Virus record (IMG/VR): IMGVR_UViG_3300005688_000042 | Reading direction: 5' to 3' (one strand) | Length of the DNA stretch: 64,000 nt | From: a virus | Taxonomy: Duplodnaviria > Heunggongvirae > Uroviricota > Caudoviricetes | Shown here: positions 7,531-61,980 of the stretch, piece by piece | How the letters are laid out: each line of letters opens with the position of its first letter | Numbering within the stretch: the stretch's first letter is position 1 | Translations under genes and position numbers: made by a program | The notes under the pieces: model-generated | The model's database searches: none | The model's input: the letters and a program-made list of their open reading frames with translations, nothing else | Told to the model about the DNA's origin: nothing

Positions 7531-7824
7531 ATGGCTATCGCATTTAATTTACTTAGAAACGATGATCCAGAGAAAGAATACGTAATTATAAATTGGAACA
7601 ATGGTATCATTGTTGATGCTAATGTCTGGAAATTTAATGATGATGAATTTGAAGATGCTAAAAAGGTCTTACTTGAAGAATGGGGAGAACCGTATGGTTT
7701 TGCTTATAAATCGTGGGACGGTCCAATTGAAACTGGAAGAACTGTAGCATCTTATGTATTAGGTGTTGTTTTTAATAATAGCAACATGATTGACGTGCTT
7801 AAAAAGCACTTTAAGAAAACATAA
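7531..7824 (+). CDS. hypothetical protein (start trimmed to MAIAFNLL)
   Basis: ORF track 7474..7824; the ATG at 7531 follows the previous stop. Confidence 0.4.
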   Translation: MAIAFNLLRNDDPEKEYVIINWNNGIIVDANVWKFNDDEFEDAKKVLLEEWGEPYGFAYKSWDGPIETGRTVASYVLGVVFNNSNMIDVLKKHFKKT

Positions 7825-7921
7825 ATAGAATTGTAAGAATATTCAGTCGAAGGACAACTATGGGTTATCAACTATTATGAAAACTCCCATAACCGTCAAT
7901 AAAACTTACTGAATTAATAAT

Positions 7922-7997
7922 GTCTCGTTGACAGAGTGGCTATGTATCCGATTGCAACCCGGATTTTAGGGGAGTTCGATTCTCTCACGAGACTCCA
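7922..7997 (+). tRNA. tRNA, anticodon most likely GCA (Cys); encoded CCA
   Basis: Acceptor GTCTCGT/ACGAGAC, T-arm GGGAG-TTCGATT-CTCTC, anticodon loop ttGCAac; D-arm imperfect. Confidence 0.45.
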
Positions 7998-8011
7998 AAT
8001 TAGAGTACATT

Positions 8012-8197
8012 ATGGATAAGTATAAAGTATTTAAAAATGATGGTGGTAAATATTTTGTAAAAGAGTATGACTTCTTTGTTTCTCAAGGTGGACTAGATAG
8101 TCATTGGGGTAGAAACTGGAAAACGGTATTGGCAGATTCTATCGAACATGCTAGGCTAATCGCAGAGGATTTGGATTGGCCAAGGAAAACATATTGA
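8012..8197 (+). CDS. hypothetical protein
   Basis: ORF track. Confidence 0.4.
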   Translation: MDKYKVFKNDGGKYFVKEYDFFVSQGGLDSHWGRNWKTVLADSIEHARLIAEDLDWPRKTY

Positions 8198-8198
8198 T

Positions 8199-8411
8199 AT
8201 GCTGTATTGTGATCGTAACTGCGGTAAATCAATAGATGAAACCGAAAAGTGGATTGTGGAATTTGTTAAGAAACATGGAGCATGGCCAAGATGTGCATGT
8301 CAATGGGGTTGTGGACCATACGGTAGATGGCGCGAAACAAAAGACCCACAATGGTGGATTGATATGTTGGAACGGATTGAAGTAGTTGACAACAAGAAAA
8401 CAAAAGTGTAG
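8199..8411 (+). CDS. Cys-rich small protein (putative zinc binding)
   Basis: CDRNCGK...CACQWGCGPYG. Confidence 0.4.
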   Translation: MLYCDRNCGKSIDETEKWIVEFVKKHGAWPRCACQWGCGPYGRWRETKDPQWWIDMLERIEVVDNKKTKV

Positions 8412-8576
8412 AATGTACTAAATAGAATAAAATTGTTTAAGTCGAAGATGTAAAGGTTATCAAGCAAACAGCAGCACGTGGGTTCGAATCCCATCCGGGT
8501 ACTAGAAATAGAACTGGTAGGCAAGTGGTTAGCCAGCCGTCAAAACATCTTTCATTGTTTAACTTACTTGAACATG

Positions 8577-8584
8577 TATAAATA
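8577..8584 (+). promoter_or_regulatory. T4-type late promoter TATAAATA
   Basis: Exact TATAAATAG 25 nt upstream of an AGTCGA unit. Confidence 0.5.
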
Positions 8585-8693
8585 GAATAAAATTGTCAGT
8601 CGATTTGTAGAAGATTATCTTAAAAAAGACTGTGGGTTCGAATCCCACCTTGGGTATGGCACCAAAACTTTTACTAAAACTTATTGGCAAACA

Positions 8694-8701
8694 TATAAAT
8701 A
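8694..8701 (+). promoter_or_regulatory. T4-type late promoter TATAAATA
   Basis: Exact TATAAATAG. Confidence 0.5.
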
Positions 8702-8917
8702 GAATTTGTAGTCGATCTGCTAAGGATTATCTTTCAATTGGTGAATTGGGCCGCGTGCCCATAATTCCTTACGAATAACTTACTACAATAATTTTGAATT
8801 TATCAGTCGATAGATGATCATTATCTTCCCGCCAAAAATTTGGGAATTAGTTGGTTCGAATCCAACACTAGCGTCGGTTCGCATTTGATTGTTGATAACT
8901 TACTGGTAATGTATTAC

Positions 8918-9004
8918 GGACGGTTGGTGGAGTCAGGTTTATCACGTCACTCTTGAAAAGTGAAGCTCCGAAAGGGGCCGTGGGTTCGAATCCCACACTG
9001 TCCT
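8918..9004 (+). tRNA. tRNA-Ser (anticodon UGA), type II with long variable arm
   Basis: Acceptor GGACGGT/ACTGTCC, anticodon stem TCACT/AGTGA with loop cuUGAaa, long variable arm, T-arm GTGGG-TTCGAAT-CCCAC; followed by a T8 run. Confidence 0.6.
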
Positions 9005-9145
9005 CAGTTTTTTTTCACAGTCGATTAATCTGGTTTACCTTGGAGAAACGTTCGACTTAATCATCGGATCGCGAGTCTGGTTCAAACCCGGACAAAATAG
9101 CGAAAGCTATTCGAACCATTTTAGCAACTTATTGTGATTCAGAAA

Positions 9146-16823: not shown

Positions 16824-16852
16824 TTGACAGCAACACTAAATAGATGTAAGAT
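16824..16852 (+). promoter_or_regulatory. sigma70-type promoter TTGACA-gcaacACTAAATAgatg-TAAGAT (tRNA promoter family)
   Basis: 17-nt spacer; spacer carries ACTAAATA. Confidence 0.55.
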
Positions 16853-16863
16853 ACACAAATCAC

Positions 16864-16936
16864 GGGTATGCACTTTCGATGGACGATGGAATGAATACGA
16901 ATCATTCGGCTGTGGGTTCGACTCCTATCATGCCCG
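16864..16936 (+). tRNA. tRNA-Arg (anticodon ACG)
   Basis: Acceptor GGGTATG/CATGCCC, anticodon stem AATGA/TCATT with loop atACGaa; D-arm weak. Confidence 0.5.
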
Positions 16937-17088
16937 CAAAAAATTAAGAAATAGATTTAAGATGACTCAGATCGTATGTGACCTACGGTGGAATTCCCGG
17001 TTGGATGATCTATCGAACACTCATGTTAAATCTAGGGCAGTAAATGATTTAAGTACACGATTATTTACTGTCCATTAACAAAATATGT

Positions 17089-17162
17089 AGCGGTATAGCA
17101 TAATGGTAATGCATCTGACTTTGACTCAGACTATGGTGGTCCGATTCCATCTACCGCTGCCA
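17089..17162 (+). tRNA. tRNA-Gln (anticodon UUG), CCA encoded
   Basis: Acceptor AGCGGTA/TACCGCT, D-stem GCAT/ATGC, anticodon stem TCTGA/TCAGA with loop cuUUGac. Confidence 0.6.
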
Positions 17163-17880
17163 AATTATTAGATTTTTGAAATGATTTTTCTAAAATTTCT
17201 GGCATATATTTCTTCATCCATCTATTGATTTTCTGAGGTTTCTTACCAAGTAATGTGGCTAATTTTGTCACCCATCCATATTTTGTAAAATCAATATCAC
17301 AGTTTTTAATTATTTCCATATCATCTTTTATTTTTGTTGTTAGTTCTCCCGTCCTATAATTGTATATTTCTTTTCGGATTATTTCGGGTTTTATCTTTTT
17401 AGGTCTTTCTGGTTTTATCTTAACTGATCTCTTTTTGACATTTGCTCCGCAGAAGTTACTAGTCTGTGCGTGACAATTCCTACATAATAATCTTATATTT
17501 TCTAGTCGATGGTCTGTTGGATCTCCATTTATATGATCTAAATCCAATGGTATTGGTTTATCGTTCCATTCAGTTAATGAACATATAGAGCATTGATGAG
17601 AGAATATATTCTCTTTAATTAATCGCACTCTTAGTTTAGATGTTGTGTATGATGGATATTTCCCATCCAATATATCTTTTAGATTTATTTTAATGTTATT
17701 TTTCCCTATTTTATTATTTGTAAACTTATCTATATTTAAATCATATAACTTTATATAATAATTTAATGACTTATAAGAGTAATTGCTAGTAGTGTGTAAA
17801 CCTAGAAAATTAAAACACTCGGCTTTTGATGTACTGGCATTGATCGCCTCTTGTAAATCTTCTTTTGATATATAATTCAT
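17131..17880 (-). CDS. HNH homing endonuclease
   Basis: HNH motif DLDHINGDPTDHRLENIRLLCRNCH; late promoter and RBS upstream; last 32 nt overlap the tRNA-Gln 3' end on the opposite strand. Confidence 0.7.
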   Translation of the reverse strand: MNYISKEDLQEAINASTSKAECFNFLGLHTTSNYSYKSLNYYIKLYDLNIDKFTNNKIGKNNIKINLKDILDGKYPSYTTSKLRVRLIKENIFSHQCSICSLTEWNDKPIPLDLDHINGDPTDHRLENIRLLCRNCHAQTSNFCGANVKKRSVKIKPERPKKIKPEIIRKEIYNYRTGELTTKIKDDMEIIKNCDIDFTKYGWVTKLATLLGKKPQKINRWMKKYMPEILEKSFQKSNNLAAVDGIGPP

Positions 17881-17906
17881 TTTGAACCTTCTTATGTTGT
17901 TAATTG

Positions 17907-17914
17907 TATTTATA
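17907..17914 (-). promoter_or_regulatory. T4-type late promoter (TATAAATAC on the minus strand) for the HNH gene
   Basis: Plus strand reads gtatttatac; AAGAAGG RBS then ATG. Confidence 0.5.
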
Positions 17915-17955
17915 CAGATGGTTCGAATTTGTTATTTTCTAGGCAAAAACAACAG

Positions 17956-17984
17956 TTGACAAACATACTAAATAGGTGTAGTAT
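17956..17984 (+). promoter_or_regulatory. sigma70-type promoter TTGACA-aacatACTAAATAggtg-TAGTAT
   Basis: Same family as 16824. Confidence 0.55.
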
Positions 17985-17995
17985 GTATGAACAAT

Positions 17996-18071
17996 GCAAC
18001 TGTAGCTCAACTGGTAGAGCACTGGCGTGAAATGTCAGGTGTTGGAGGTTCGAAGCCTCTCGGTTGCACCA
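17996..18071 (+). tRNA. tRNA-Phe (anticodon GAA), CCA encoded
   Basis: Acceptor GCAACTG/CGGTTGC, D-stem GCTC/GAGC, anticodon loop guGAAau, T-loop TTCGAAG. Confidence 0.7.
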
Positions 18072-18086
18072 AAATTAAAGAATTAG

Positions 18087-18163
18087 GCGGGTGTGGTATA
18101 GTGGCTGTGCCCTGCGCTTCCAACGCAGAGTTTAGGTGGGTTCGATTCCCATCGCCCGCTCCA
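18087..18163 (+). tRNA. tRNA-Gly (anticodon UCC), CCA encoded
   Basis: Acceptor GCGGGTG/CGCCCGC, anticodon stem CTGCG/CGCAG with loop cuUCCaa, T-loop TTCGATT; followed by a T6 run. Confidence 0.7.
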
Positions 18164-18866
18164 ATTTTTTATATTTTCTCAAATCTAAATCTATCCCCAA
18201 CCGCTTACATCTTTTCTTAATTGCCGTGTCACTGACACCAAACTTCTCACCCAAAGACACCATTGAATGGTTTATGATCAATTCTGTCAATTCCTCTTTA
18301 GTGACGTTAAACTTTCTCATATTTTGAGTCCTGATGGCCTTTTTCTCTGCTGATTCATAGCTCTTCCGCTTGTCATTCTTCGGACGTTTGGAATTTCGAC
18401 CAGAAAATGTAGTAGTTTGGCTGTGACAGTTAGGACAAAGAAAACATAAATTTTCTAATCTATTGTCATCATTAATCCCATTAATGTGCTCTAATTGCAA
18501 GATTAATGGTTTGCCATTATGACTTCCATTATTATCACATTCAGAACATTTGTAAGCTAATAGATTATTTTCTGTTAGTATCTTTTTAATTGTTTTTCTA
18601 CTCGTCTTAGAACCAGTAACAAAAACATTGTGTATATTATGAGTACAATCTATGCGTGCTTTTCTATATTCTTTATAGTTTAATTTCATTTGTTCGGTAT
18701 TAATTGACTCCACACTGATCCTCCGTGTCAGTGTCCTATGGTTCCCGTTGTAACCATTAAATCCTAACTTCTCTAAAACTTCTACGATAGAACTACTTGT
18801 GTCTATCATGTTTTGTAAATCTTCTCTAGGTATTAACCATATTACTGACGTTCTTGGTTTTGGCAT
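18132..18866 (-). CDS. HNH homing endonuclease (start trimmed to MPKPRTS)
   Basis: LEHINGINDDNRLENLCFLCPNCH; late promoter plus AAGGAG RBS upstream of the ATG at 18866; C-terminus overlaps the tRNA-Gly 3' end. Confidence 0.65.
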   Translation of the reverse strand: MPKPRTSVIWLIPREDLQNMIDTSSSIVEVLEKLGFNGYNGNHRTLTRRISVESINTEQMKLNYKEYRKARIDCTHNIHNVFVTGSKTSRKTIKKILTENNLLAYKCSECDNNGSHNGKPLILQLEHINGINDDNRLENLCFLCPNCHSQTTTFSGRNSKRPKNDKRKSYESAEKKAIRTQNMRKFNVTKEELTELIINHSMVSLGEKFGVSDTAIKKRCKRLGIDLDLRKYKKLERAMGIEPT

Positions 18867-18885
18867 TCGAACTCTCCTTTTTAAG

Positions 18886-18893
18886 TATTTATA
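18886..18893 (-). promoter_or_regulatory. T4-type late promoter for the HNH gene
   Basis: Minus strand reads cgTATAAATActtaaaaaggagagttcgaATG. Confidence 0.55.
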
Positions 18894-18962
18894 CGAGTTC
18901 GTTGACATTATTCCTTTTTTGTGCGAACATGCCTTTACAACCTCCATAACCAAAAACCCACC

Positions 18963-19364
18963 ATGCGCATAATTATAGAAATCCCTGACGATCAAGTCCC
19001 CCCATCATATCGTTCTGATCTTTATCCTTCTGGTTATGCCGAGGATAATTTACATGATTTGATAATAAGTGATTCAATTTTACGCAAGCTTGAGATGAAG
19101 ATGGATTTGATCATAGCCAAAGATATTGGCGAAGAATTGAAGCAGGCTCTTAAAGAAACATACGAGGCTGACATAGCATTGCTAAAACTTTTACAACAAA
19201 ATATGAAGATAGAGTCAGAATCTGGCGTTTCAAAAGAAAAAATTCTAATTGATGGTTTGACAGATGTGGTTAAGGATTGGTATGATGGTTGCCCTAAGTC
19301 GATGAACTTTGTCACAAGAACTCTTAAACTACTTAAAACATATATGGGAAATCCAAAATGTTAA
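18963..19364 (+). CDS. hypothetical protein (start trimmed to MRIIIEIPDD)
   Basis: ORF track 18921..19364. Confidence 0.4.
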   Translation: MRIIIEIPDDQVPPSYRSDLYPSGYAEDNLHDLIISDSILRKLEMKMDLIIAKDIGEELKQALKETYEADIALLKLLQQNMKIESESGVSKEKILIDGLTDVVKDWYDGCPKSMNFVTRTLKLLKTYMGNPKC

Positions 19365-21189: not shown

Positions 21190-21756
21190 ATGAGAATAAA
21201 AATATCTGAATATGCAAAAATGAAAGGTGTGAGCCAGCGCACAGTATGGCGCTGGATCAAAAATAACGAACTACAAATAGAACATACACAAACTGGCAGG
21301 GTTCGCATCTTACTTGATGTCAATAAAGAGACAAAAGTCGCTGTTTATGCCCGAGTTTCGAGTACAGAAAACAAAGATAATCTTGATAGACAAAAAGATC
21401 GAGTTGTGTCTTATTGCAATGCCAAAGGATACAAAATAGAGAAGATTGTCACAGAAATTGGTTCTGGTTTAAATGACAACAGACCAAAACTTGAGTCGCT
21501 TTTAATAGATAAAGACATTGACTTGATTGTTGTGGAACACAAAGATCGATTAGCCCGTTTCGGCACCAATTACATCGAGAAATTGCTGGCTGTTTCTGAC
21601 AGAAAGATTGAGGTCATCAATCCGGTTCAGGACGAAAAAGAAGATTTAATGCAAGATTTCGTGTCACTTGTCACATCTTTTACAGCCCGGTTGTATGGAT
21701 TGCGTAGGTCCAAGCGACAGACCGAAAAGCTGATCCAATCCTTGGAAGCTGCATGA
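21190..21756 (+). CDS. tnpA: IS607-type TnpA: MerR-like HTH + serine recombinase (resolvase) domain
   Basis: KMKGVSQRTVWRW HTH; catalytic VYARVSS...RQ. Confidence 0.7.
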   Translation: MRIKISEYAKMKGVSQRTVWRWIKNNELQIEHTQTGRVRILLDVNKETKVAVYARVSSTENKDNLDRQKDRVVSYCNAKGYKIEKIVTEIGSGLNDNRPKLESLLIDKDIDLIVVEHKDRLARFGTNYIEKLLAVSDRKIEVINPVQDEKEDLMQDFVSLVTSFTARLYGLRRSKRQTEKLIQSLEAA

Positions 21757-22982
21757 AAGCTAGACGTGTAGAAAAGCATGCCATATGTCGCACAAGTCAT
21801 TATTTTAGTGACTTGTGTGATCTGACTCACAAGTCCAAAAACTTGTATAATGCATCTTTGTATGCCATTCGTCAGCATTTTTTCTCCACAAAAACATACA
21901 TCGGCTATTCAAAATTAGCTGGTGATTTCGCAAAAACTAATATAGATTACCAGCAATTACCTAGAAAAGTGTCACAACAGACCTTAAAATTGGTTGATCA
22001 AAATTTTAGATCATTCTTTGCTTTGTTGAAAGCAAAGAAAAATGACAAGGTACGTATACCAAATTACCTAGACAAATCAGGTAAATATGTGACAATTTTC
22101 ACTAATCAGGCATTATCTTTCGTTAAACCTGGATATGTAAAATTATCTGGTTATGACATCTTTATAAAGACAGAAAAAACAGATATACAACAGGTTAGAG
22201 TTGTTCCGAGAAGCAATCATTTTGATATAGAAGTGATATATTTGACAGATATAGAAGACAAAAGAAGTGACAATAGTCGTTATTTGTCCGTTGATATCGG
22301 TTTAAGTAATTTAGTAGCAACAGCGTCAAATGTCATGAAACCATTTTTAATAAATGGAAAACCATTGAAAGCTATAAACCAATATTATAATAAAAGAAAA
22401 GCAGAACTACAATCAAAATTAGGAGACAAAAGAAAGACAAGTAATAGAATCAACGCCATTTCTAGAAAAAGAAATGACAAAATTCGTGATTATTTACATA
22501 AAGCAAGTACGTGGCTTATTAATCAATTAGATTTCAACCAAATAAACACCTTAATAATCGGTGAAAATAAAGGTTGGAAACAAGAGATAAACATCGGAAA
22601 GAAAAATAATCAAAATTTTGTGTCAGTGCCATTCAATAAATTGAAACAAATGTTGACATATAAAGCCGAATCAAGAGGAATTAATGTCATTTGTCAGGAA
22701 GAGAGCTATACATCAAAGGCATCATGTTTGAGTAATGATATGATTCCGACATATGGAGAGAAGACGGATGACATGAAATTTTCTGGATATAGAAAAACCA
22801 GAGGAATTTATAAAGACAAATGTCTTGATTTAGAAATAAATGCAGATGTCAATGGCGCATATAATATTATGAGAAAAGCAGTCGGAGATGTAAAAATTGA
22901 TCCGATAGAGGCATGTAGTTGGCCCTTGTCAGTGAAAATTTCACTTGACACAAAACCTAAGTTATGTCATTATTGGCATTGA
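21753..22982 (+). CDS. tnpB: TnpB (OrfB) RuvC-like protein; C-terminal zinc finger degenerate
   Basis: RuvC-I VDIGLSN, RuvC-II IIGENKGW, RuvC-III NADVNGAYNI; both CxxC pairs lost (CLSND, CLDLE). Confidence 0.65.
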   Translation: MKARRVEKHAICRTSHYFSDLCDLTHKSKNLYNASLYAIRQHFFSTKTYIGYSKLAGDFAKTNIDYQQLPRKVSQQTLKLVDQNFRSFFALLKAKKNDKVRIPNYLDKSGKYVTIFTNQALSFVKPGYVKLSGYDIFIKTEKTDIQQVRVVPRSNHFDIEVIYLTDIEDKRSDNSRYLSVDIGLSNLVATASNVMKPFLINGKPLKAINQYYNKRKAELQSKLGDKRKTSNRINAISRKRNDKIRDYLHKASTWLINQLDFNQINTLIIGENKGWKQEINIGKKNNQNFVSVPFNKLKQMLTYKAESRGINVICQEESYTSKASCLSNDMIPTYGEKTDDMKFSGYRKTRGIYKDKCLDLEINADVNGAYNIMRKAVGDVKIDPIEACSWPLSVKISLDTKPKLCHYWH

Positions 22983-27486: not shown

Positions 27487-28296
27487 TTAAGATTTACAGA
27501 ATCTATTATGATTTCCCGCATACTGCCCGCCACATTTTTGAGAACAAAATTTCTTACGGTCAGAAGTAACTTTAAACTCTGTACCACAATTAGCACATCC
27601 CTTAAATTCAATTACGACATCATCATATAATTCAAAAAATCTGTTTCGGTGTAATCCAGTCTTGTTTTCAACATATTCAAATATCTCTTGTAAATCTTGT
27701 TTATATTTTATGGTCACCAAACCGTTTGTTCCTGATAATTTGTAAGTGTCTATATTTCTAAAATAATTCTTTATTTCTATGATTTTACCATTGACTAAAA
27801 AGTCGGGAAAAAATTTGAAGTGGTCATTGCGATCAGGGTCATAATAGTCGAAATATTTTCCATATCTTTCAATATTATTACCGTGATCTAAGTTGTATAT
27901 TACAAAAGCTAATTCATAAGTAGAATCGCAATATATGCCTTGGTATTTTCCAGACTTACCTCTGGTAGAGCCTAGACGAACGCCTCCCATTTTTACACCA
28001 TCATATAATCCGTTTTTCCAATAATTGATTGTCAATTGTGATCTTGCTTTATGGTAACATTCATCAGAACACGTTTTTCTATATCGCCGATGTTGATATT
28101 GCGCGTTACAGATTATGCATGTTATTATTTTAAGTGATCTGCTTAGTTTATGGTTTTCAGACATTTTTCGTTTTGTTTCTTCACTATGTTTTCTTCTACT
28201 GTTATTATATGAAGCGGCACACGATTGATTACAGAATTTACTTCTTGAGTCATTTGTGGTAAACTCTTTACTACAGTATAAACATGTTTTAATCAT
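27487..28296 (-). CDS. putative PD-(D/E)xK-type endonuclease with three Cys4 zinc ribbons (candidate homing endonuclease)
   Basis: CLYCSKEF...CNQSC, CIICNAQ...CSDEC, CANCGTEF...CSQKC; core YCDSTYE...FFPDF...EIK. Confidence 0.4.
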   Translation of the reverse strand: MIKTCLYCSKEFTTNDSRSKFCNQSCAASYNNSRRKHSEETKRKMSENHKLSRSLKIITCIICNAQYQHRRYRKTCSDECYHKARSQLTINYWKNGLYDGVKMGGVRLGSTRGKSGKYQGIYCDSTYELAFVIYNLDHGNNIERYGKYFDYYDPDRNDHFKFFPDFLVNGKIIEIKNYFRNIDTYKLSGTNGLVTIKYKQDLQEIFEYVENKTGLHRNRFFELYDDVVIEFKGCANCGTEFKVTSDRKKFCSQKCGGQYAGNHNRFCKS

Positions 28297-28364: not shown

Positions 28365-28394
28365 GCTGACAACACTAAATAAGTTGTGTATGAT
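28365..28394 (+). promoter_or_regulatory. sigma70-type promoter CTGACA-acACTAAATAagttgtg-TATGAT (tRNA promoter family)
   Basis: Read directly. Confidence 0.5.
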
Positions 28395-28403: not shown

Positions 28404-28506
28404 GGGGATGTCGTATAACGCGTGAGTAGAATGCATTCACCACATTTGGAATTACGCATGATGTTAAAATTGTGAAATGGTGGTTCGAATCCATCTGTCC
28501 TCGCCA
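28404..28506 (+). tRNA. tRNA-like gene, ~103 nt, canonical 3' half with CCA; 5' half/anticodon unresolved
   Basis: T-arm GGTGG-TTCGAAT-CCATC, 3' acceptor TGTCCTC-G-CCA, possible 5' partner GGGGATG; internal palindrome GAATGCATTC. Confidence 0.3.
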
Positions 28507-28523: not shown

Positions 28524-28643
28524 GGAAATAATTGTTGTCTCAGCTAAAGAATTAGAAGAATTAGAAGAATTAGAAGAATTAGAAGAATTAGAAGAAATGG
28601 AAAGAATAGCTAGAGAACGTGAATTAAAAGCGTTTGCATAAAG
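28524..28643 (+). CDS. 39-aa micro-ORF containing (EEL)5
   Basis: Hand translation MEIIVVSAKELEELEELEELEELEEMERIARERELKAFA. Confidence 0.25.
28546..28595. repeat. 9-nt tandem repeat (agaattaga)x5
   Basis: Read directly. Confidence 0.7.
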
Positions 28644-28702
28644 ATGCCATTTACAGGTTTTGCAAAAAATGCTACTGTAGAATGGAATAAATAAAGTAAT
28701 AT

Positions 28703-28801
28703 AGATCGGTGGTGCAATGGCAGCATACCAGTCTCCTAAATGTTTTTGTAAAAGAATATTTAGGAAAACTGATGATCGGGGTTCAAGTCCCTGCCGGTCT
28801 G
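28703..28801 (+). tRNA. over-long tRNA-like gene (~98 nt) with a 7-bp internal hairpin CCTAAAT/ATTTAGG
   Basis: Acceptor AGATCGG/CCGGTCT, D-stem GTGC/GCAT, T-arm CGGGG-TTCAAGT-CCCTG; anticodon not assignable. Confidence 0.3.
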
Positions 28802-31823: not shown

Positions 31824-32183
31824 ATGAAAATTACTACGGATGAGTTTGAAGTCGAAGGTTCTTTTGTCGCAAGGCAGACTTATAAAGAACCAACGTCTAC
31901 CAACTCTCACACTTTTGGCCCAAGTGATGTAAACAAGTGCGTAAGGTTTACGGATGCTGGAGCGAACAGCGCTATATTTCCTGACACTTTAACCGCTGGA
32001 ATGGGCGGCTTGATTATGCGAGCCGTTGGAGCTGGGGTCATCACTTGGTCAGTGACGGGATCAATGGTCATAACCCCTGATGCTGCGTCTACTGGACACA
32101 CAGGAAGTGCTGCTGACCCATCATTCCTATGGTGGGAATGTGATGGAACAAACTCCGTGATCATTGGAGGAAGTACAGCGTGA
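31824..32183 (+). CDS. hypothetical protein in the GC-rich fibre module
   Basis: ORF track; GGGATA RBS. Confidence 0.45.
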   Translation: MKITTDEFEVEGSFVARQTYKEPTSTNSHTFGPSDVNKCVRFTDAGANSAIFPDTLTAGMGGLIMRAVGAGVITWSVTGSMVITPDAASTGHTGSAADPSFLWWECDGTNSVIIGGSTA

Positions 32184-32932
32184 TTAAACGCGGCGGCAGG
32201 TTCTTACAACGGTCTAATGGTAGCTTGGACCTATCATCTAATTTAGTTCTTTCACTTGATCTTGAAGAGGTTAGTGGGGACGCTATTGATCAAAGTATTA
32301 GTGAGTATGATTTCATTGATGTGAATACAGTGGAATCCGCCGCCGGAGCAACGCCCGGATACGGGTCACGCTTGTTTACACCAGATAACTCGGAGCATCT
32401 CTATCTGCCAAGTTCAGGAACATCAAATGTAAATATTTTAGATAATGAATGGGCCATGCACTTTTGGGCCAAGCGAAACGCAACTGGCGCCCGCATCATT
32501 TTTGCCAAATCACCGAGTACTGTGGTCGCTACTGCTACCGCAAGAGCATTCATTATTTACTTTTCTTTGTCGACTTTGATCTTTACTGTTGGGAGATCTG
32601 TCGCTGCTGATGGCGCTGTATCGGTTTCTGCTAATGTACCGATGAGTGAATGGATTCCTGTGTTATGTTGGCACGATCCAAATGCAGATGTAATTGGAGT
32701 GAAAATCGGCACGGATGCGGCTGTGACAACCACTTTAGTTGGAGGCGCACGAGCCGGTAGCTCATCTGACGTCAGGATCGGATCGACATCCGTAACCCCC
32801 GGCTCTTATCTTGACGCAAATCTTGCAGCTTTGCGAATCTGGCGAGGCGCTGGTGTCATCAATCAAATAGTCAATCCTGAAGTAATCAATTTTCTAAACG
32901 CAAGACAACGAAGACACACGGAGTTAGTATGA
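32180..32932 (+). CDS. hypothetical protein, possibly lectin/LamG-like jelly-roll (fibre-associated)
   Basis: ORF track; GC-rich; fold assignment is a guess. Confidence 0.35.
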   Translation: MIKRGGRFLQRSNGSLDLSSNLVLSLDLEEVSGDAIDQSISEYDFIDVNTVESAAGATPGYGSRLFTPDNSEHLYLPSSGTSNVNILDNEWAMHFWAKRNATGARIIFAKSPSTVVATATARAFIIYFSLSTLIFTVGRSVAADGAVSVSANVPMSEWIPVLCWHDPNADVIGVKIGTDAAVTTTLVGGARAGSSSDVRIGSTSVTPGSYLDANLAALRIWRGAGVINQIVNPEVINFLNARQRRHTELV

Positions 32933-33435: not shown

Positions 33436-33495
33436 TATGATTAGGTTGGTCGCCTTGAATTGATAAATACCTTTATAAACTAAATAGGAATAAAA

Positions 33496-33888
33496 ATGAC
33501 AATTACGGTTACTTTAACAAATAACAGACACATAGCTGGCGCAAATGCGGCTTATATGATGACAATCCCTGAAGATGGAGATTCACCGTACCAATCTGTA
33601 CAGGAATATGTACAAAATGCAATCGAACGTGTAGCTGAATCATGGGCTGACTCAGCGAAGGTTGATCAAATTTCAGTATTTGAGTTTGTTGAACGTATTG
33701 GCGCGGAGCGATTCGCCGCGATAACAGCAGCGGCACCGAACGACCCTATCATCGCAGAAATGTTGGTCACGCTTCGCGCCCGACAGACCGTGAGATTAGG
33801 ATCGCCAGATGCAATCAATGGTATTGCATACCTCGTCAGTGTTGGTCTATTGACACAGCAACAAGCTGACACCGCGTTGGCGTATTGA
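33496..33888 (+). CDS. hypothetical protein (fibre module)
   Basis: ORF track; AGGAATAAAA RBS. Confidence 0.45.
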   Translation: MTITVTLTNNRHIAGANAAYMMTIPEDGDSPYQSVQEYVQNAIERVAESWADSAKVDQISVFEFVERIGAERFAAITAAAPNDPIIAEMLVTLRARQTVRLGSPDAINGIAYLVSVGLLTQQQADTALAY

Positions 33889-35615: not shown

Positions 35616-35774
35616 ATGATGATAAAATTAGTAGATTTCGCAAAGACGCAAGGTGTATGTTACAGAACAGCTTACAATTGGTTCCACCTTGGCTACATCG
35701 AAGGTGCATACCAAACGGCATCACGCACTATATTGGTGCCGAAAGACGCCAAAGTTAAGAGAAAAAGCGAATAA
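35616..35774 (+). CDS. truncated IS607 TnpA: MerR-like HTH only (52 aa)
   Basis: Hand translation MMIKLVDFAKTQGVCYRTAYNWFHLGYIEG... parallels the TnpA N-termini of copies 1 and 3; no resolvase domain; AAAGGA RBS. Confidence 0.45.
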   Translation: MMIKLVDFAKTQGVCYRTAYNWFHLGYIEGAYQTASRTILVPKDAKVKRKSE

Positions 35775-35781
35775 AATCGCC

Positions 35782-36891
35782 GTGAATCTTGCCCACAAAA
35801 TTCAGTTAAAACCCAACAAAGAACAGAAGCAGATGCTGGCGCGAGCCGCAGGCTGCGCCAGATTCACTTACAATTGGGCTTTGGCCGAATGGAATAAGCA
35901 ATATATGGCAGGCGAGAAACCGTCAGCATTAAAATTGAAAAAGCAATTCAATTCCATTAAAAAGCAGGAATTTCCATGGATATACGATTCACCAAAAGAT
36001 GCAAATCAACAACCATTTACAAATTTACAAAGTGCTTTCAAAGGTTTCTTCGACAAACGAACCGCGTATCCGCAGTTTAAGAAAAAGTACAAACGCGATT
36101 CATTTTATGTCTCAAACGATCAATTTCACATAACTGATAATATGATTAAACTTCCACTAATTGGAAAAATTAAATTGGAAGAGACATTGAGATTTGAAGG
36201 TAAGATCATGTCTGCTGTGGTCAGTCGAAAAGCTGATAAATGGTTTATATCAATTGCGGTAGAGATGAATGATTATGGTAAAGCTAGAACATCAGATAAC
36301 ACCATAGCAATTGATTTTGGCATCAAAACTTTCGCGGTTGATCAAAATGGCGCATCTTTCGATGCACCAAAACCATTGAAAAACAAGCTTCAAAAGCTGA
36401 AAAGGTATCAGAGAATTTGTTCAAAGAGAAAAGATGGAAGTCAAAACAAAAAGAAACAAAGATGTAAAGTAGCAAAAATACATAAAGAAATCAGTGACTT
36501 ACGTCACGATTTCACACACAAATTTACAACTCAAATCTGTCGCGAAAACCAAACGATAATTATAGAAGATTTGAATTTGAAAAGCTGGAGCAAAATGTTT
36601 GGGAAGTCAGGAATTGATGGTGGCGTGGGCGAAGCCCGACGCCAACTCAAATACAAGTCATTGATTTATAACAACAATTTAGTTGTAATAGATAAATGGG
36701 CACCGACTTCCAAATCATGTTCTAGTTGTGGTAGCTATAAATCAGACTTGAAATTGAGTGATCGAATCTTCTGCTGTACGGATTGTGGTCATAAAATGGA
36801 CAGAGATTGGAATGCTGCCAAAAATATTTATGTCTCAGGAATGAGACAACTAGGGATGGCTTGTCCCGAAGTTACGCCTTTGGACATCTGA
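35782..36891 (+). CDS. tnpB: TnpB (OrfB), apparently intact; probable GTG start
   Basis: RuvC-I IDFGIKT, RuvC-II IIIEDLN, zinc finger CSSCGS...CTDCGH, RuvC-III DRDWNAAKNI; no in-frame ATG after the HTH ORF stop. Confidence 0.6.
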   Translation: MNLAHKIQLKPNKEQKQMLARAAGCARFTYNWALAEWNKQYMAGEKPSALKLKKQFNSIKKQEFPWIYDSPKDANQQPFTNLQSAFKGFFDKRTAYPQFKKKYKRDSFYVSNDQFHITDNMIKLPLIGKIKLEETLRFEGKIMSAVVSRKADKWFISIAVEMNDYGKARTSDNTIAIDFGIKTFAVDQNGASFDAPKPLKNKLQKLKRYQRICSKRKDGSQNKKKQRCKVAKIHKEISDLRHDFTHKFTTQICRENQTIIIEDLNLKSWSKMFGKSGIDGGVGEARRQLKYKSLIYNNNLVVIDKWAPTSKSCSSCGSYKSDLKLSDRIFCCTDCGHKMDRDWNAAKNIYVSGMRQLGMACPEVTPLDI

Positions 36892-41240: not shown

Positions 41241-41690
41241 GTGGATCGAAATCCTGAAGTAGCGGCCAGAGAATTAAACGACAAACACGTGATAAAATTA
41301 ATTTTAGAGGGTTGTCAGCTAATGACAACTGTACTTCATCGTTACGGCGAAGGTTATTATTGTACATACAAACCGACTCATCATAATCATCCCTGTACGC
41401 GATGGGCTGGCGACAGTAAGCAGAACTTCATGTGGCTATGGTTTCATACGAAAGAACTCTGTAAAGAGTACACAAGACGTTATGGCAAGGTTCACAAGAG
41501 TGAACAATACTTAGCTGAGTATATGCCACCAGAATCAATGCCTGATATCGGTTTAACACCATTCGCGCAGGCTATGCCAGACCAATATAAACACGAAGAT
41601 GCTGTTATAGCGTATAGAAATTATTACCATGGCGAGAAAGCATCATTCTCAACATGGAAGACACAAAAACCTCATTGGTGGAAATTATAA
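41241..41690 (+). CDS. hypothetical protein; weak resemblance to pyrimidine-dimer DNA glycosylase (DenV-like)
   Basis: N-terminus NPEVAARELNDKH and C-terminal W-rich tail loosely recall T4 endonuclease V; low certainty. Confidence 0.25.
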   Translation: MDRNPEVAARELNDKHVIKLILEGCQLMTTVLHRYGEGYYCTYKPTHHNHPCTRWAGDSKQNFMWLWFHTKELCKEYTRRYGKVHKSEQYLAEYMPPESMPDIGLTPFAQAMPDQYKHEDAVIAYRNYYHGEKASFSTWKTQKPHWWKL

Positions 41691-47117: not shown

Positions 47118-47314
47118 TTACAAAAACGTAATTTTATTTTTGATATGTAACCAATATAGGATAGAATGAAATGGTTGTGAAAAAGTCCACACCAATGATT
47201 TATAGAAGTGACAAAACCAAAAACGTAAATCTATTTTTGACCTAATTACAAAGTATGTTGTAGGAAACATTGTCACCAGAAAAGCCACACCAATGGTTTA
47301 GAATGACCATAGAG

Positions 47315-47346
47315 GCTAAATGCTAACGCAAGCGTTAGCATTTAGC
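47315..47346. repeat. perfect 15-bp inverted repeat hairpin GCTAAATGCTAACGC-aa-GCGTTAGCATTTAGC
   Basis: Read directly. Confidence 0.7.
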
Positions 47347-47527
47347 CTGTGGAAGGGGTTAGGGGATGGTGAATTTGACCATATTATGGGCTAAAATGTC
47401 AATGTTACTGGGGAATAATTTTGGCAAGATTTTTGAAGAGATGGTAATATGAGTACAGATAACGGGCCAAAAGTAGCGTAAGTGACTGTTTTAAAGCAGT
47501 TTTTTGAAATTTTGAGTCGAAGTGTGG

Positions 47528-47535
47528 TATAAATA
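47528..47535 (+). promoter_or_regulatory. T4-type late promoter TATAAATA (a second variant CATAAATAC lies 35 nt downstream)
   Basis: Read directly. Confidence 0.4.
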
Positions 47536-47606
47536 CAACAAAGATTATTTTAAGAATGTTGCATAAATACAACAAGAATACAGTGAGAACGATTGTTTTT
47601 TAATTG

Positions 47607-47614
47607 TATAAATA
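47607..47614 (+). promoter_or_regulatory. T4-type late promoter TATAAATA
   Basis: Read directly. Confidence 0.4.
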
Positions 47615-48236
47615 ATAGTATAAGTATATGATAATAAAGAATAATTTGAATTATTTTTGAATTATGGTAAAGATTATTGATGCGATAGTATTATGAGGAA
47701 TCTAAGGGAAAAAAATTCGTATACTTCACATAAAAAACCCTTATAAATCAAGCACTTACGTAACTTTTTTAAAGTATTTTCTTATAATTTTATCCCACCG
47801 TAGCCGCCAAAACGGTCCAAAAAACCCTCTAGTATAGCATAATTCCCACCCTCTTGTCAAGCGTTTTTCGCAACTTTTTGCGAGATTTTACAATTACTTT
47901 TCCCTTTAGAATCAATGACTTACGATTTTCTTTACAAATGATACCCTCCTACCATACTTCGACCCTCCTGTCAACCATTTTTCGAAAGATTTACACAAAA
48001 TTTACTTTATAAATCAACAACTTATAGGTAAATCTTGCGCCAACCACATGATAGCAAATAGTTATATACCATGTCAAGTGCCATTTTATATTATTTTGTT
48101 CAGCTATCGTTCAGGTATGGTATGTTAAAATAGGGTGGAGGTTGGGAGAATAGGGTTAAATTCTCATCAAAGCGTGATATTGTGATTGCACAATTCACGC
48201 TTCGCGTGATACAATGAGCAAACGAAGGAGATTTTT

Positions 48237-49516: not shown

Positions 49517-49563
49517 GCAAAGTTGCTAAATACGTTTTATACATACGTATTTAGCAACTTTGC
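49517..49563. terminator. perfect 19-bp inverted repeat hairpin, probable factor-independent (possibly bidirectional) terminator
   Basis: GCAAAGTTGCTAAATACGT-tttatacat-ACGTATTTAGCAACTTTGC, flanked by TTTTT on the left and AAAAAATTTTT on the right. Confidence 0.55.
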
Positions 49564-50839: not shown

Positions 50840-51325
50840 ATGAAAGTTAAACATGCGTATGCAAACTCATATCGGGTTCTTCATGATGAAGTGGAACACA
50901 TTCTGACATTTTATAAATGGGATGGTGGAGAACATTCATTAAAAGAATATATTAATGAATACCATGGTAACGTGATGACTTGGATGGTGCCATTGTTTAA
51001 ACGAAATGGATTTTACCAGAATCGAAGGACGGGATTCACATGGATGGAGATTAATGATCTAGCTTTTACTAATAGACATATGAAGGCGCAATTTGATTAT
51101 GATCTATCGGTTCTTAATCAAAAGGTACATAGTACACGTGAAATCAATGCCATGAATGAATTGTTTAAACTGAATTCATTGTCGCCTAAATGTATGCAAG
51201 AGATTCGCCAAGCATTGTATAATAATAAAAATCGGACTGAATTGCGATTGATTGGGTTGTCTGGATTGCGTACTCGCAAAAGAGTAATAGCTTTCAAAGA
51301 AAAACATAACATTGCAAAGGAGTAG
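50840..51325 (+). CDS. hypothetical protein (start trimmed to MKVKHAY)
   Basis: ORF track 50819..51325. Confidence 0.4.
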   Translation: MKVKHAYANSYRVLHDEVEHILTFYKWDGGEHSLKEYINEYHGNVMTWMVPLFKRNGFYQNRRTGFTWMEINDLAFTNRHMKAQFDYDLSVLNQKVHSTREINAMNELFKLNSLSPKCMQEIRQALYNNKNRTELRLIGLSGLRTRKRVIAFKEKHNIAKE

Positions 51326-51408
51326 TTGACAAGTAAGTAAAAACCAAGTAACCTAACAACGTGGAAATGATCCACGAAATTTTTAAACCCACTAACCGGA
51401 GAAACAAA

Positions 51409-51732
51409 ATGAATACAGAAATCGAAACTGTTGCAACTGAAACTGTTGATACCGTTGTCCATGCTGATACCAGCGCAGTCGTTGAAGGTGCTGTTACTGA
51501 GGCTACTAACACTGCCGCAGAAGCTACGCCTAGTGTGAAGCCTGCCAAGGCCAAGGGTGTACCGGGACGTCCGCGTGTTGCTGGCTCTGCCCTCTCTCGT
51601 GCTCGCTCCATTTATGCCGCTAACCCTACTGCTGCCCGTGCTGACATCGTGGCTAAGTTTGTTGCGGATGGCATTAGCAAGCCGATTGCCAATACCTACT
51701 TCCACCTGATTCAGAAGTCTAACAAGCGATAA
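51409..51732 (+). CDS. acidic/Ala-rich protein with AT-hook-like PGRPR (start trimmed to MNTEIETV)
   Basis: ORF track 51361..51732; GGAG RBS before the ATG at 51409. Confidence 0.4.
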   Translation: MNTEIETVATETVDTVVHADTSAVVEGAVTEATNTAAEATPSVKPAKAKGVPGRPRVAGSALSRARSIYAANPTAARADIVAKFVADGISKPIANTYFHLIQKSNKR

Positions 51733-51740
51733 TAGGGAGA

Positions 51741-52094
51741 ATGACAATGAAGCGTAAGATTAATTTCAAGTTTCATGTCATTCAGATGGCCGATCATCGT
51801 GTTACGGTGGGGTACATTCCTACCGTAACATCTGAAGGGCTTCAGGTCAAGATTGCAGCCGCATGGACTAATCCAAAGGATCAGTTTGTAAAGGCTCGTG
51901 GTCGTGAGATTGTAGCTGGTCGTCTGGATGCTGGTCGTAATGTTTTCGATATTACGATTCCCAATGCCAAGCATCCTACCAAGGCTGGGGAGTATCGCGA
52001 ACTGGAGAGCAAGATTATTGACAAGGTGATGGACGAAATGCCAAAGGCTGTAATCCAAGCCGCTGAACGTGCTGAAAGGCGTCTTGACTCATAA
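51741..52094 (+). CDS. hypothetical protein
   Basis: ORF track. Confidence 0.45.
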   Translation: MTMKRKINFKFHVIQMADHRVTVGYIPTVTSEGLQVKIAAAWTNPKDQFVKARGREIVAGRLDAGRNVFDITIPNAKHPTKAGEYRELESKIIDKVMDEMPKAVIQAAERAERRLDS

Positions 52095-52156
52095 TTCCGA
52101 AAATTAGCACAAATAATATCATCTGCTATAAATAGATATATGAAAGGTGATATTAC

Positions 52157-52735
52157 ATGAAACTTCGACAATGGGCAAATAAACAAGGGATTTCCTACTT
52201 GACAGCGCTTCGCTGGTTCAAGGCAGGTAAAATTCCAAATTCAACTCAATTCCCATCTGGCACCATCATAATACAAGATGAGCTGCCTGTCAACACGGAT
52301 GAAAATAAATCAGTACATATCTATGCCAGAGTTTCTTCACATGAGAAGAAAGATGATCTAACCAGACAAGCCCAAAGATGTGTTGAATTTGCTAATGCCA
52401 ATGGATACGAAATAATCTCAGTTACAAAAGAAATTGCTTCTGGCATGAATGATAAGCGACCAAAATTAATTAAATTGATTGAACAGAAACCAAAACATAT
52501 CATTGTTGAGCACAAGGACAGATTGACCAGATTTGGATTCAATTACTTTGATTTATTACTTCCTATGATTGGTTGTAAATTAACTGTTATGAATAGAGAT
52601 CAAGAAGAGCATGCGGATTTAATGAAAGATTTAGTTTCTGTTATTACATCATTTTGTTGTAAATTATATGGTCTGCGCAGAGCGCAGAACAAGAAACAAA
52701 AGATCCAACAAATATTGGAAGACGAAAATGTTTAA
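52157..52735 (+). CDS. tnpA: IS607-type TnpA serine recombinase with MerR-like HTH
   Basis: NKQGISYLTALRWF HTH; IYARVSS...RQ. Confidence 0.7.
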   Translation: MKLRQWANKQGISYLTALRWFKAGKIPNSTQFPSGTIIIQDELPVNTDENKSVHIYARVSSHEKKDDLTRQAQRCVEFANANGYEIISVTKEIASGMNDKRPKLIKLIEQKPKHIIVEHKDRLTRFGFNYFDLLLPMIGCKLTVMNRDQEEHADLMKDLVSVITSFCCKLYGLRRAQNKKQKIQQILEDENV

Positions 52736-53783
52736 AAGAGCTATTAAGTTGAAATCATATGCAACAGAAGCAAAGCAAAATAAAGTCCTTGCTTTGATTA
52801 GTCGCTATAGATGTCAAGTTAATATGTTTATAGATTACATCTGGAACAACAAAGAAACAGCAAAATTAGATGCTAAAACATTGAAATCTATAGATAAAGT
52901 TCAAGATTTATCCGAAAGATATAAATCCAATGCATTGAAACAGGCACTTCAAATTTGTAAAAGCGAAAAGAACAAATCCAAACCAGATTTCAATGGTTAT
53001 CCGGTGCTAGATGCAAAGTTCGTGTCTATTGACACGAACAAATCTTCAAAAGAATTTGATTTGTGGATAAAATTATCAACATTGAAATCTGGAAGACGAA
53101 TAGAAATACCAACAAAGAAGCATGCACATTTAAACAAATGGCTTAAAACTGGTACATTGATACAAGGCTGTGAGCTTCGCCCAGACGGTTTCATCGTCTG
53201 GGTAGAGGCGAACCCACCTGAAAAGAAAAATAGCTTGAAGGTCGGTGTAGACATCGGAATGAACAAGCTATTGACCACTAGCTATGGTGAAAAATTAGGA
53301 ACTGATTTTAATCGAATCAATGATAAAATTCTAAGGAAGAAAAAGAACAGTAAGAATTACAAAAGAGCCATAGCAGAAAAGAAAAACTATATAAATCAAT
53401 CAGTTAACTTGCTTCCGTGGACAGAAATGGAAGTGCTTTGCTATGAAAACATTAAAAATTTGAAGAAAGGAAGTACAAAAAGAAATAAACAAACAAGACA
53501 AAAACAGCAACATTGGAGCTATAGACAAGTTATAGAAGCTATGAAAATGAAGGCCCAAGCTAACCGTGTTAGCTTGGTCTATGTTAATCCGGCTTACACT
53601 TCTCAGAAATGTTCCGCTTGTGGTAATATTGCTGCATCCAGTCGATATCTAGAAAATTATTGTTGCATCAGTTGCGGTCATACACAAGACGCAGATGTAA
53701 ATGCAGCAAAAAATATTCTACACAAAGGACTAGACTGGATAACGAGCTTAGAGTCCGTTAAGTCAAAAAGTGCTATCATATGA
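52728..53783 (+). CDS. tnpB: TnpB (OrfB), intact RuvC motifs and zinc finger (start trimmed to MFKRAIKL, ATGTTTAA overlap)
   Basis: VDIGMNK, YENIKNL, YTSQKCSACG...CISCGH, DADVNAAKNI. Confidence 0.7.
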   Translation: MFKRAIKLKSYATEAKQNKVLALISRYRCQVNMFIDYIWNNKETAKLDAKTLKSIDKVQDLSERYKSNALKQALQICKSEKNKSKPDFNGYPVLDAKFVSIDTNKSSKEFDLWIKLSTLKSGRRIEIPTKKHAHLNKWLKTGTLIQGCELRPDGFIVWVEANPPEKKNSLKVGVDIGMNKLLTTSYGEKLGTDFNRINDKILRKKKNSKNYKRAIAEKKNYINQSVNLLPWTEMEVLCYENIKNLKKGSTKRNKQTRQKQQHWSYRQVIEAMKMKAQANRVSLVYVNPAYTSQKCSACGNIAASSRYLENYCCISCGHTQDADVNAAKNILHKGLDWITSLESVKSKSAII

Positions 53784-53831
53784 TAGCTAAATCACTAACT
53801 CTGCTACGAGTGTTAAATCTGTAATATAACA

Positions 53832-53864
53832 GAACCCCACCTGAGACGTGGGGTTTCTTTTTTG
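53832..53864 (+). terminator. rho-independent terminator
   Basis: CCCCAC-ctgaga-CGTGGGG followed by TTTCTTTTTTG. Confidence 0.65.
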
Positions 53865-54038
53865 TCTTTCCTACCATCCCCGACCTCCATCCCATTTTAC
53901 CACATATAATATAACTCTGTCTTGTTGTTTTTTCGCAACATTCATAAACCGTTCATGAAGAAAGAAAACGGTTTTGTTCATTTACCGTTCATCGTACTGT
54001 GCTATGATTCATCCATACAAACCAACTGGAGAAAAGAA

Positions 54039-56261: not shown

Positions 56262-56314
56262 GACTGAGTTATGATTACCACACTGAAAACACACACCCAC
56301 TAGGAGTAACAAAC

Positions 56315-57403: not shown

Positions 57404-57536
57404 GAGTCTGGTAGATAAGTTATAAAGAATGGCCGGGGAAACCCGGCCATTCATTTTATGTTCATATACATGGTGTTAAAATTGGTACGGCGGTTGGGGA
57501 ACATCATAAATAGACTTACAACAGGAGATCTATTTT

Positions 57537-58055: not shown

Positions 58056-58083
58056 CAATAATTATAAACAGTTGTAACATTCA

Positions 58084-58114
58084 AAGGGGTGCTTGACGCA
58101 CCCCTTCTTTTTTG
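58084..58114 (+). terminator. rho-independent terminator
   Basis: AAGGGGTGC-ttgac-GCACCCCTT followed by CTTTTTT. Confidence 0.7.
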
Positions 58115-58153
58115 ATATAGTCTATCCACACTAACAACAGGACATAAAAACAA

Positions 58154-58345: not shown

Positions 58346-58352
58346 ATTATAA

Positions 58353-58425: not shown

Positions 58426-58433
58426 ATATAATC

Positions 58434-60833: not shown

Positions 60834-60841
60834 TTTATAGT
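60813..60841 (+). promoter_or_regulatory. sigma70-type promoter TTGACA-N17-TATAGT for rnlA
   Basis: Read directly. Confidence 0.5.
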
Positions 60842-60866
60842 ATATACACTCAACCAAGGAACGCCA

Positions 60867-61979: not shown

Positions 61980-61980
61980 G

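Follow-up and report, generated by a model that had tools for sequence, protein, structure and literature searches.

The locus described here raises the question of how a phage might supply its tRNAs both before and after host sigma factor is displaced, because phage tRNAs are thought to be most needed late, for translation of structural genes, yet annotation usually places them behind early promoters. In a 64,000-nucleotide (nt) stretch of DNA from an uncultured sludge phage (IMG/VR record IMGVR_UViG_3300005688_000042; the whole stretch is called the window below), three putative sigma70-type promoters preceding tRNA or tRNA-like genes were found to carry an octamer, ACTAAATA, inside the spacer between −35 and −10. 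On balance, it is probable from the sequence that these are nested dual promoters, from which tRNA and stable-RNA genes would be transcribed early and late by polymerase carrying the host sigma and a phage sigma. The sequence read comprised ~72 kb of a genome of ~307 kb, namely the window and a right-hand extension provided by a JGI contig that is identical to the window at 50867–64000 and adds 7,979 nt on the right.

All three promoters are on the plus strand. Promoter 1 (16824–16852) is composed of TTGACA (16824–16829), gcaac, the nested ACTAAATA (16835–16842, extended by a G to 16843), gatg, and TAAGAT (16847–16852); promoter 2 (17956–17984) of TTGACA (17956–17961), aacat, ACTAAATA (17967–17974, with a G to 17975), ggtg, and TAGTAT (17979–17984); and promoter 3 (28366–28394) of CTGACA (28366–28371), ac, ACTAAATA (28374–28381, with an A to 28382), agttgtg, and TATGAT (28389–28394). 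The box of promoter 3 sits 3 nt nearer the −35 than at the other two sites. The original prediction had placed such boxes in sigma70 spacers at 16824, 17956, and 28365; this was borne out on the sequence, the third site starting one base later, at 28366. Of the spacer lengths claimed (17–18 nt), only the shorter holds, as every one of the three spacers is 17 nt. The −35 elements match TTGACA at 6/6, 6/6, and 5/6 positions (promoters 1, 2, and 3), and TAAGAT, TAGTAT, and TATGAT all fit TAnnnT at a spacing of 17 ± 1; judged by sequence, the outer elements qualify as candidate promoters for the housekeeping sigma (sigma70-type). In a consensus scan, each site gave 10/12 matches, placing it among the best promoter-like sites in 13 kb. 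The −10 lies 9–11 nt from a co-oriented RNA gene at all three. A fourth composite, TTGACG-ttgta-CCTAAATAG-atg-TATGAT, was found just outside the window (extension coordinate 64308), 11 nt before tRNA-Pro.

For estimation of chance occurrence, 300 dinucleotide-preserving shuffles of the 72 kb were prepared. The real sequence holds 4 composites, 3 of them in the window, and the shuffles gave a mean of 0.01 and a maximum of 1. CTAAATA was present in 4 of the 34 promoter-like sites with a 17-nt spacer, all 4 of which stand directly before a tRNA or tRNA-like gene. ACTAAATA by itself is not over-represented (7 copies observed, 4.5 expected), and 7/7 copies are on the plus strand.

It had also been proposed that each promoter drives tRNA genes. 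By position, this stands for promoter 2, which is followed by tRNA-Phe(GAA) (17996–18071, 11 nt after the −10) and tRNA-Gly(UCC) (18087–18163). The first gene of the promoter 1 unit is an atypical tRNA-Arg(ACG)-like gene (16864–16937, 11 nt after the −10), which scored 28.9 bits against the Rfam tRNA threshold of 29 and was called by ARAGORN at a relaxed threshold only; its orthologue in a relative (see below) is called tRNA-Arg(acg), and the second gene of the unit is tRNA-Gln(UUG) (17089–17162). For promoter 3 the claim needs restating, as it precedes only a tRNA-like RNA of ~100 nt (28404–28501, 9 nt after the −10). Neither Rfam nor ARAGORN at default settings calls this RNA, in which an acceptor stem, a T-arm, and a long variable-arm hairpin could be recognised, and its structure is kept in the relative (locus L341) with compensatory changes. 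All five genes are on the plus strand. A tandem repeat, GAATTAGAA ×5, was noted at 28548–28595, within a small open reading frame (ORF) between the tRNA-like RNA and the next tRNA.

The relative is a 315-kb IMG/VR contig with ~75–84% nucleotide identity in coding regions; no further relatives were found in a metagenome protein scan. Its orthologue of promoter 1 (L233/L029) shows 97% identity over 38 nt, compared with 81–84% for flanking ORFs and ~76% for the tRNAs, and that of promoter 3 (L341) has the same unusual register with a perfect TTGACA (6/6). Further nested sites of the relative lie ahead of tRNA-Pro, tRNA-Tyr, and a tRNA called Lys, that of tRNA-Tyr (L247) being in yet another register. 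Distant contigs (L060/L090, a 270-kb contig; L250; L188) have 35–45% protein identity to the window, as measured for T4-type RNA ligase 1 (Rnl1) and a TilS-like gene. They carry nested CTAAATAG before tRNA-Leu and tRNA-Tyr (L060/L090) and before tRNA-Thr (L250), and nested ATAAATAG before tRNA-Tyr (L188); before other tRNAs of the same contigs, boxes lie just past or overlapping the −10.

These comparisons bear on the possibility that the box has no separate function, the spacers being alike either because the promoters arose by duplication or because AT-rich spacers in general favour strong sigma70 promoters. We regard this as very improbable. The box is invariant while other spacer positions vary among sites, its register shifts at promoter 3 and at the tRNA-Tyr site of L247, it is kept at 35–45% protein identity, and 30/34 promoter-like sites in the 72 kb do without it. 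What can be said for it is that promoters can spread with mobile cassettes, and AT-rich spacers are indeed common in phage promoters. Promoter 2 lies in an HNH-containing indel: together with an HNH homing-endonuclease gene (17131–17880, minus strand) and that gene's own canonical TATAAATA box (17914–17907), it makes up the 833 nt that separate tRNA-Gln from tRNA-Phe, where the relative has 14 nt. A search for strains lacking the HNH insert returned only identical contigs. In the relative, a GIY-YIG ORF ends within a nested promoter, its stop codon being the TAG of ACTAAATAG. Two other antisense HNH genes lie between tRNA genes, at 18132–18995 and 27487–28296 (both minus strand), with (T/G)ATAAATA boxes at 18893 and 28322. 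At the position of the former, the relative has a GIY-YIG gene and an extra tRNA instead, and the two phages thus have different endonucleases at one and the same intergenic position. In T4, promoters for downstream genes sit inside seg/mob genes, segB lies in the tRNA cluster, and homing endonucleases are driven by late promoters (PMC2988022).

The box found in the spacers also occurs alone, and in this setting a second promoter class could be delineated, N(A/C)TAAATA, often followed by G and mostly located 18–39 nt before start codons, as are T4 late promoters. When xTAAATA heptamers in the 72 kb were scored for lying 4–45 nt upstream of a same-strand 5′ end, this was the case for 20/38 with A, 9/19 with C, 1/25 with G, and 1/23 with T; pooled, 29/57 (A/C)TAAATA copies were in promoter position versus 2/48 of the G/T variants (Fisher p = 7e-8). 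By placement, ATAAATA and CTAAATA therefore act like promoter boxes, unlike the control variants, and the C and A types stand at comparable distances from the starts of ORFs. Canonical boxes stand ahead of the three HNH genes, of two resolvase/TnpB units and a lone TnpB gene, and of a block that weakly matches a virion protein (32180–32932). A separate sigma70-type class is represented by many good TTGACA-N17-TAnnAT sites, which precede rIIB, the gene for RNA ligase, and small ORFs. When the 90 nt ahead of each predicted ORF 5′ end were surveyed, 19 ORFs had a box only, 17 a sigma70-like element only, 2 both, and 110 neither.

An alternative is that the box, rather than being a promoter in itself, is an operator bound by a phage regulator that turns the sigma70 tRNA promoters off or on. 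Stand-alone copies at promoter distance, with neither a sigma70 −35 nor a correctly spaced −10, were found at 63576, 69916(−), 68629(−), and 68039(−), and these make the operator reading less likely; the motif is furthermore strictly co-oriented with the downstream gene and is not palindromic. An operator would suit the variable position of the box relative to the sigma70 promoter (inside the spacer; at 8417, 2 nt past the −10; at L233 12999, on the start site), as well as the conserved trailing G, which reaches past the T4 8-mer. T4 I-TevI and DsbA bind sites overlapping late promoters (PMC2988022, PMC2988020), and a match to a DsbA-like ‘DNA binding protein’ family was obtained at 41241–41690. 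Taken together, we consider an operator unlikely.

As a separate observation, a sigma70 −10, TAATAT, overlaps a canonical TATAAATA (TTGACA-N17-TAATATAAATA) before a cell-wall hydrolase gene (PF07486) in the extension (L237, 70817–70758, minus strand). This is a likely lysis gene, and the overlap of its promoters differs in form from nesting in a spacer.

The same survey was made for tRNA genes, again within 90 nt upstream. Both elements were found at 4 (the nested sites), a box only at 4, and a sigma70 element only at 0; every tRNA-adjacent promoter in the 72 kb carries the box. Both elements were thus combined at 4/8 promoter-bearing tRNAs, compared with 2/38 promoter-bearing ORFs (p = 0.005). 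The stand-alone boxes, which have no −35, end 9–11 nt before the tRNAs at 28703, 63595, 65433, and 71661(−), and both ACTAAATA and TATAAATA forms are present among them. At 28678–28694 (plus strand), a −10-like TAGAAT is followed by gg and AATAAATAA, ending 9 nt before the tRNA at 28703–28801. At 63576–63584 (plus strand), a stand-alone ACTAAATAG ends 11 nt before tRNA-Met (63595–63670) and is kept in the relative (L247); the TAG within this box doubles as the stop codon of ORF 63324–63584. At extension coordinate 65415, a box-only TATAAATAA precedes tRNA-Leu in the same 9–11-nt geometry.

Boxes could also be followed through an array of degenerate tRNA-like units at 7820–9110, each of which opens with a late-type box (CATAAATAG at 7820, ACTAAATAG at 8417, TATAAATAG at 8577 and 8694). 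The order within a unit is box, (A/G)GTCGA, ~14 nt, GnTTATC, and often a GGTTCGAATCC T-arm. Standard tools call only tRNA-Cys (7922) and tRNA-Ser (8918) in the array, and its units could be either tRNAs in decay or stable small RNAs of the T4 rnaC/rnaD kind. At 8386–8425 (plus strand), heading tRNA-like units, TTGACA-N17-TAGAAT is joined to ACTAAATAG (8417–8425), the box starting 2 nt after the −10. The units at 8577 and 8694 are paralogous to that at 8417 and begin with TATAAATAG in the absence of a sigma70 promoter, so that ACTAAATAG and TATAAATAG interchange among paralogous units. The array is kept in the relative (L233, 99–1033), with the same promoter arrangement at L233 99–139. The box-only tRNA sites, the interchange within the array, and the layout kept in the relative all speak for a nested box that functions as part of the second class.

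To look beyond this genome, IMG/VR was scanned with the strict pattern TTGACA-N6-CTAAATAG-NNG-TAnnAT, with two permuted boxes of the same composition as controls. The pattern was found in 59 stretches (30 distinct 29-mers), and the controls in 7 and 4, an 8–15-fold difference that also speaks against a box without function. Homologues of T4 core genes (gp43, gp44, gp45, gp46, gp47, gp55, or regA) were present at 36/59 loci. When the base before TAAATAG was left free, C was found in 20/63 families versus 9.8 expected (p = 0.002). Among the genes behind nested CTAAATAG promoters are those for tRNAs, for a cytosine methylase and a PTPS enzyme, and for a gp32 homologue (L323, CCTAAATAG); among the matches listed in a NTAAATAG scan, a second, unrelated T4-like contig family (L282) has a nested CATAAATAG before its gp32 homologue. 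Gene 32 of T4 has both middle and late promoters (PMC2988022). In another T4-like contig (L307), a canonical box is nested, as TTGACA-aactag-TATAAATA-ctga-TATGAT, and the downstream ORF resembles a small heat-shock protein by eye. The motif is therefore enriched elsewhere in the genome, in relatives, and across IMG/VR, where a lack of such enrichment had been named as grounds for abandoning the idea. Given the 8–15-fold enrichment, the mostly T4-like contigs, and the gp32 site, the architecture may be general and overlooked. Literature searches for CTAAATAG and for nested early/late promoters returned no description of the arrangement. Multi-class control is itself well known in T4; the searches gave no account of one promoter nested inside the 17-nt spacer of another, or of its recurrence in T4-like contigs.

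Several observations weigh against a dual early/late function. The nested copies are C-type in 11/13 independent loci (11:2), and stand-alone copies in promoter position are 6 C to 20 A (p = 4e-4). In three T4-like contigs with nested CTAAATAG, the canonical TATAAATA is what precedes the late genes gp3 or gp4, and when the other loci were pooled, CTAAATA was not clearly promoter-positioned. The composite was not seen in the T4 and Aeh1 tRNA clusters, nor was there a clear one in the PA5oct tRNA region; the RAS14 region has no tRNAs. At two places the box ends only 9–10 nt before an ATG, namely at 12999 in the relative (L233) and at 33479–33487 (plus strand), where ACTAAATAG lies 9 nt before the ATG of ORF 33496–33888 with GATAAATA upstream at 33462. 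A start 6 nt past the box would remove the Shine-Dalgarno sequence at both, and hence these two may not be promoters for the adjacent ORF. Finally, homologues of gp55, gp33, and gp45 were not found in the window and its 8-kb extension (~72 of ~307 kb) or in the relative's loci. The sequence read includes no capsid or tail genes, and late genes were sought with the Xoo-sp13 terminase as bait, which gave 1442 matches, none attributable to the 306,556- and 306,759-nt contigs described below, and through same-genome HNH paralogues, of which none were identifiable.

Some of these points suit a different explanation, in which CTAAATA(G) marks a distinct ‘middle’ or continuous promoter class read by another phage factor (a second sigma or a gp55 paralogue), making the tRNA promoters early plus middle. 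We hold this to be possible, if doubtful. The predominance of C in nested copies and of A in stand-alone ones, the ~2-fold excess of C before TAAATAG in the unbiased IMG/VR sample, and the presence of canonical TATAAATA before gp3 and gp4 all speak for it, and the genes behind nested boxes (tRNAs, gp32, DNA methylases, PTPS) fit as well, the T4 tRNA cluster and gene 32 being served by middle promoters (PMC2988022). Many T4-like phages are without MotA and have no known middle consensus (PMC1524935), and two kinds of sigma factor are encoded by group 2 jumbo phages (PMC7824862). Stated more broadly, and with the same reserve, CTAAATAG in sigma70-type promoters would be the signature of an unrecognised, MotA-independent ‘middle/continuous’ mode with the fixed C as its discriminating base. 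Such a mode may be common to many environmental T4-like phages and this jumbo clade, serving tRNAs, gp32, and DNA-modification genes through a factor that is not the classical late machinery. A separate class sits poorly with the interchange of ACTAAATAG and TATAAATAG in paralogous units, with the use of both box forms 9–11 nt before tRNAs and at similar distances from ORF starts, and with the derivation of the Aeh1 consensus (a/g)CTAAATA from regions upstream of late-gene orthologues (PMC1524935). The preference for C could also be explained by the spacer itself, where TATAAATA would create a TATAAA mimic of a sigma70 −10, 5–7 nt after the −35, that C may serve to avoid.

For the dual early/late promoter, which we favour, we infer the polymerase forms using the box, the timing, and the start sites as follows. 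TTGACA-N17-TAnnAT would be read early in infection by host housekeeping-sigma polymerase, starting ~7 nt past the −10 and hence 2–5 nt before the mature tRNA 5′ end. The spacer box, (A/C)CTAAATA(G), would be a copy of the phage N(A/C)TAAATA type, the counterpart of the gp55-type late promoter of T4 and Aeh1. After displacement of host sigma, phage-sigma polymerase would use this box as a −10-like element and start ~6 nt past it, at the A at position 2 of the sigma70 −10 hexamer, which, being AT-rich, would supply the melting region for the late start. The late leader would be ~10 nt longer, the extra being removed by RNase P, and a single module of 29 bp would thereby provide for tRNA synthesis early and late. 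Nesting would be imposed by geometry, because only 9–11 nt are available between the −10 and the tRNA. If this is correct, a module read by two polymerase forms would explain how tRNAs are supplied after host-sigma displacement, and it would bear on how T4 relatives without MotA bridge the early and late phases of transcription.

The T4 late promoter is TATAAATA at −13 to −6, recognised by gp55 in conjunction with gp33 and the gp45 clamp. The boxes described here share with it the TAAATA core, the AT-rich downstream segment, the distance from start codons, and use before homing-endonuclease genes; the nested copies differ in having AC rather than TA at −13/−12 and a conserved trailing G. They match the T4 consensus at 6/8 positions and the Aeh1 variant at 8/8. 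For Aeh1, the late consensus (a/g)CTAAATA, starting at −13/−12, was drawn from sequences that precede orthologues of late genes (Nolan et al. 2006, PMC1524935; Geiduschek & Kassavetis 2010, PMC2988020). The 8-mer is identical, with both ACTAAATA and GCTAAATA seen here, and in each case a short −10-type box without a −35 is found in a T4-related phage. The description of the embedded box as late-promoter-like thus stands, on its identity to the Aeh1 sequence and its use alone upstream of ORFs and other tRNAs. The Aeh1 consensus came from stand-alone sites, whereas here the box lies in a sigma70 spacer, alongside a majority ATAAATA form.

Expression kept across infection phases is also known for multi-class T4 genes (such as gene 32, whose middle and late promoters are embedded in segG; Edgell et al. 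2010, PMC2988022), and as with T4 seg/mob, promoters travel with or inside homing-endonuclease cassettes (here the HNH indel at promoter 2 and the relative's GIY-YIG ORF). In T4, the promoter classes stand side by side, unlike the nested elements sharing 29 bp described here. Another functional parallel is the MotA middle promoter of the T4 tRNA cluster, where an extra box added to a sigma70 −10 likewise prolongs tRNA transcription past the early phase. The MotA box is (a/t)(a/t)TGCTT(t/c)A centred at −30, and it replaces the −35. The present promoters have no TGCTT box at −30, their −35 is intact and near-perfect, and their box is centred near −20. With the T4 tRNA leader as comparison, a MotA-type middle promoter was rejected on the absent TGCTT box and the intact TTGACA. 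A role of the nested copies at the RNA level was likewise rejected, as they lie upstream of the sigma70 start.

The sequence of the window is also present in bioreactor-sludge metagenomes, the longest assemblies being 306,556 and 306,759 nt (samples JGI 3300013282 and 3300038816, SRR1506951). The window has a G+C content of 36.7%, with nearly all genes on the plus strand, and contains rIIA (53922–56261), rIIB (56315–57403), and Rnl1 (60867–61979), along with three TnpB/resolvase units, several genes for HNH homing endonucleases, and no fewer than 15 tRNA or tRNA-like genes. Judged on gene content, it is classed as a T4-related phage of the ‘group 2’ jumbo type; such phages are without an RNA polymerase of their own and generally encode sigma factors, gp33, and a sliding clamp (PMC7824862). 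A nucleotide search of INPHARED with the window gave no cultured-phage match. The best protein matches are to Xanthomonas and Stenotrophomonas jumbo phages at 30–47% identity (Xoo-sp13, RAS14/CM1), and for the TilS-like gene to PA5oct-type phages; at 30–47% protein identity, the cultured relatives are too distant for promoter knowledge to be transferred. Independent assemblies stop ~90 nt from window position 1, which suggests that the left edge is a physical genome end or the boundary of a terminal repeat.

Three IS607/IS605-type units were identified, with a serine resolvase and TnpB at 21190–22982, TnpB alone at 35653–36891, and resolvase and TnpB at 52157–53783. TATAAATAG precedes each of them (21160, 35590, and 52127), and for this reason the mobile elements appear to be wired into the late-type promoter class.

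A tRNA with anticodon CUA (amber suppressor; labelled ‘Pyl’ by ARAGORN) at 58353–58425 adjoins the TilS-like (PF01171) gene at 58434–59057. TAG is the rarest stop codon (9/148 ORF calls), and together these may mean that TAG is read through or recoded in part of the genome.

Two further regions contain boxes. About 1.1 kb at 47120–48230 is without an ORF. Its minus strand has promoter-like TTGACA-N17/18 sites at 48077, 47974, and 47860, its plus strand has (T/C)ATAAATA boxes in tandem at 47528, 47562, and 47607, and a palindrome, GGCTAAATGCTAACGC/GCGTTAGCATTTAGCC, lies at ~47313–47349; the region could encode a cluster of non-coding RNAs, or serve in replication or regulation. At 49517–49563, a long perfect hairpin, AAAGTTGCTAAATACG...CGTATTTAGCAACTTT, presents CTAAATA on both strands and could be a terminator or a protein-binding palindrome.

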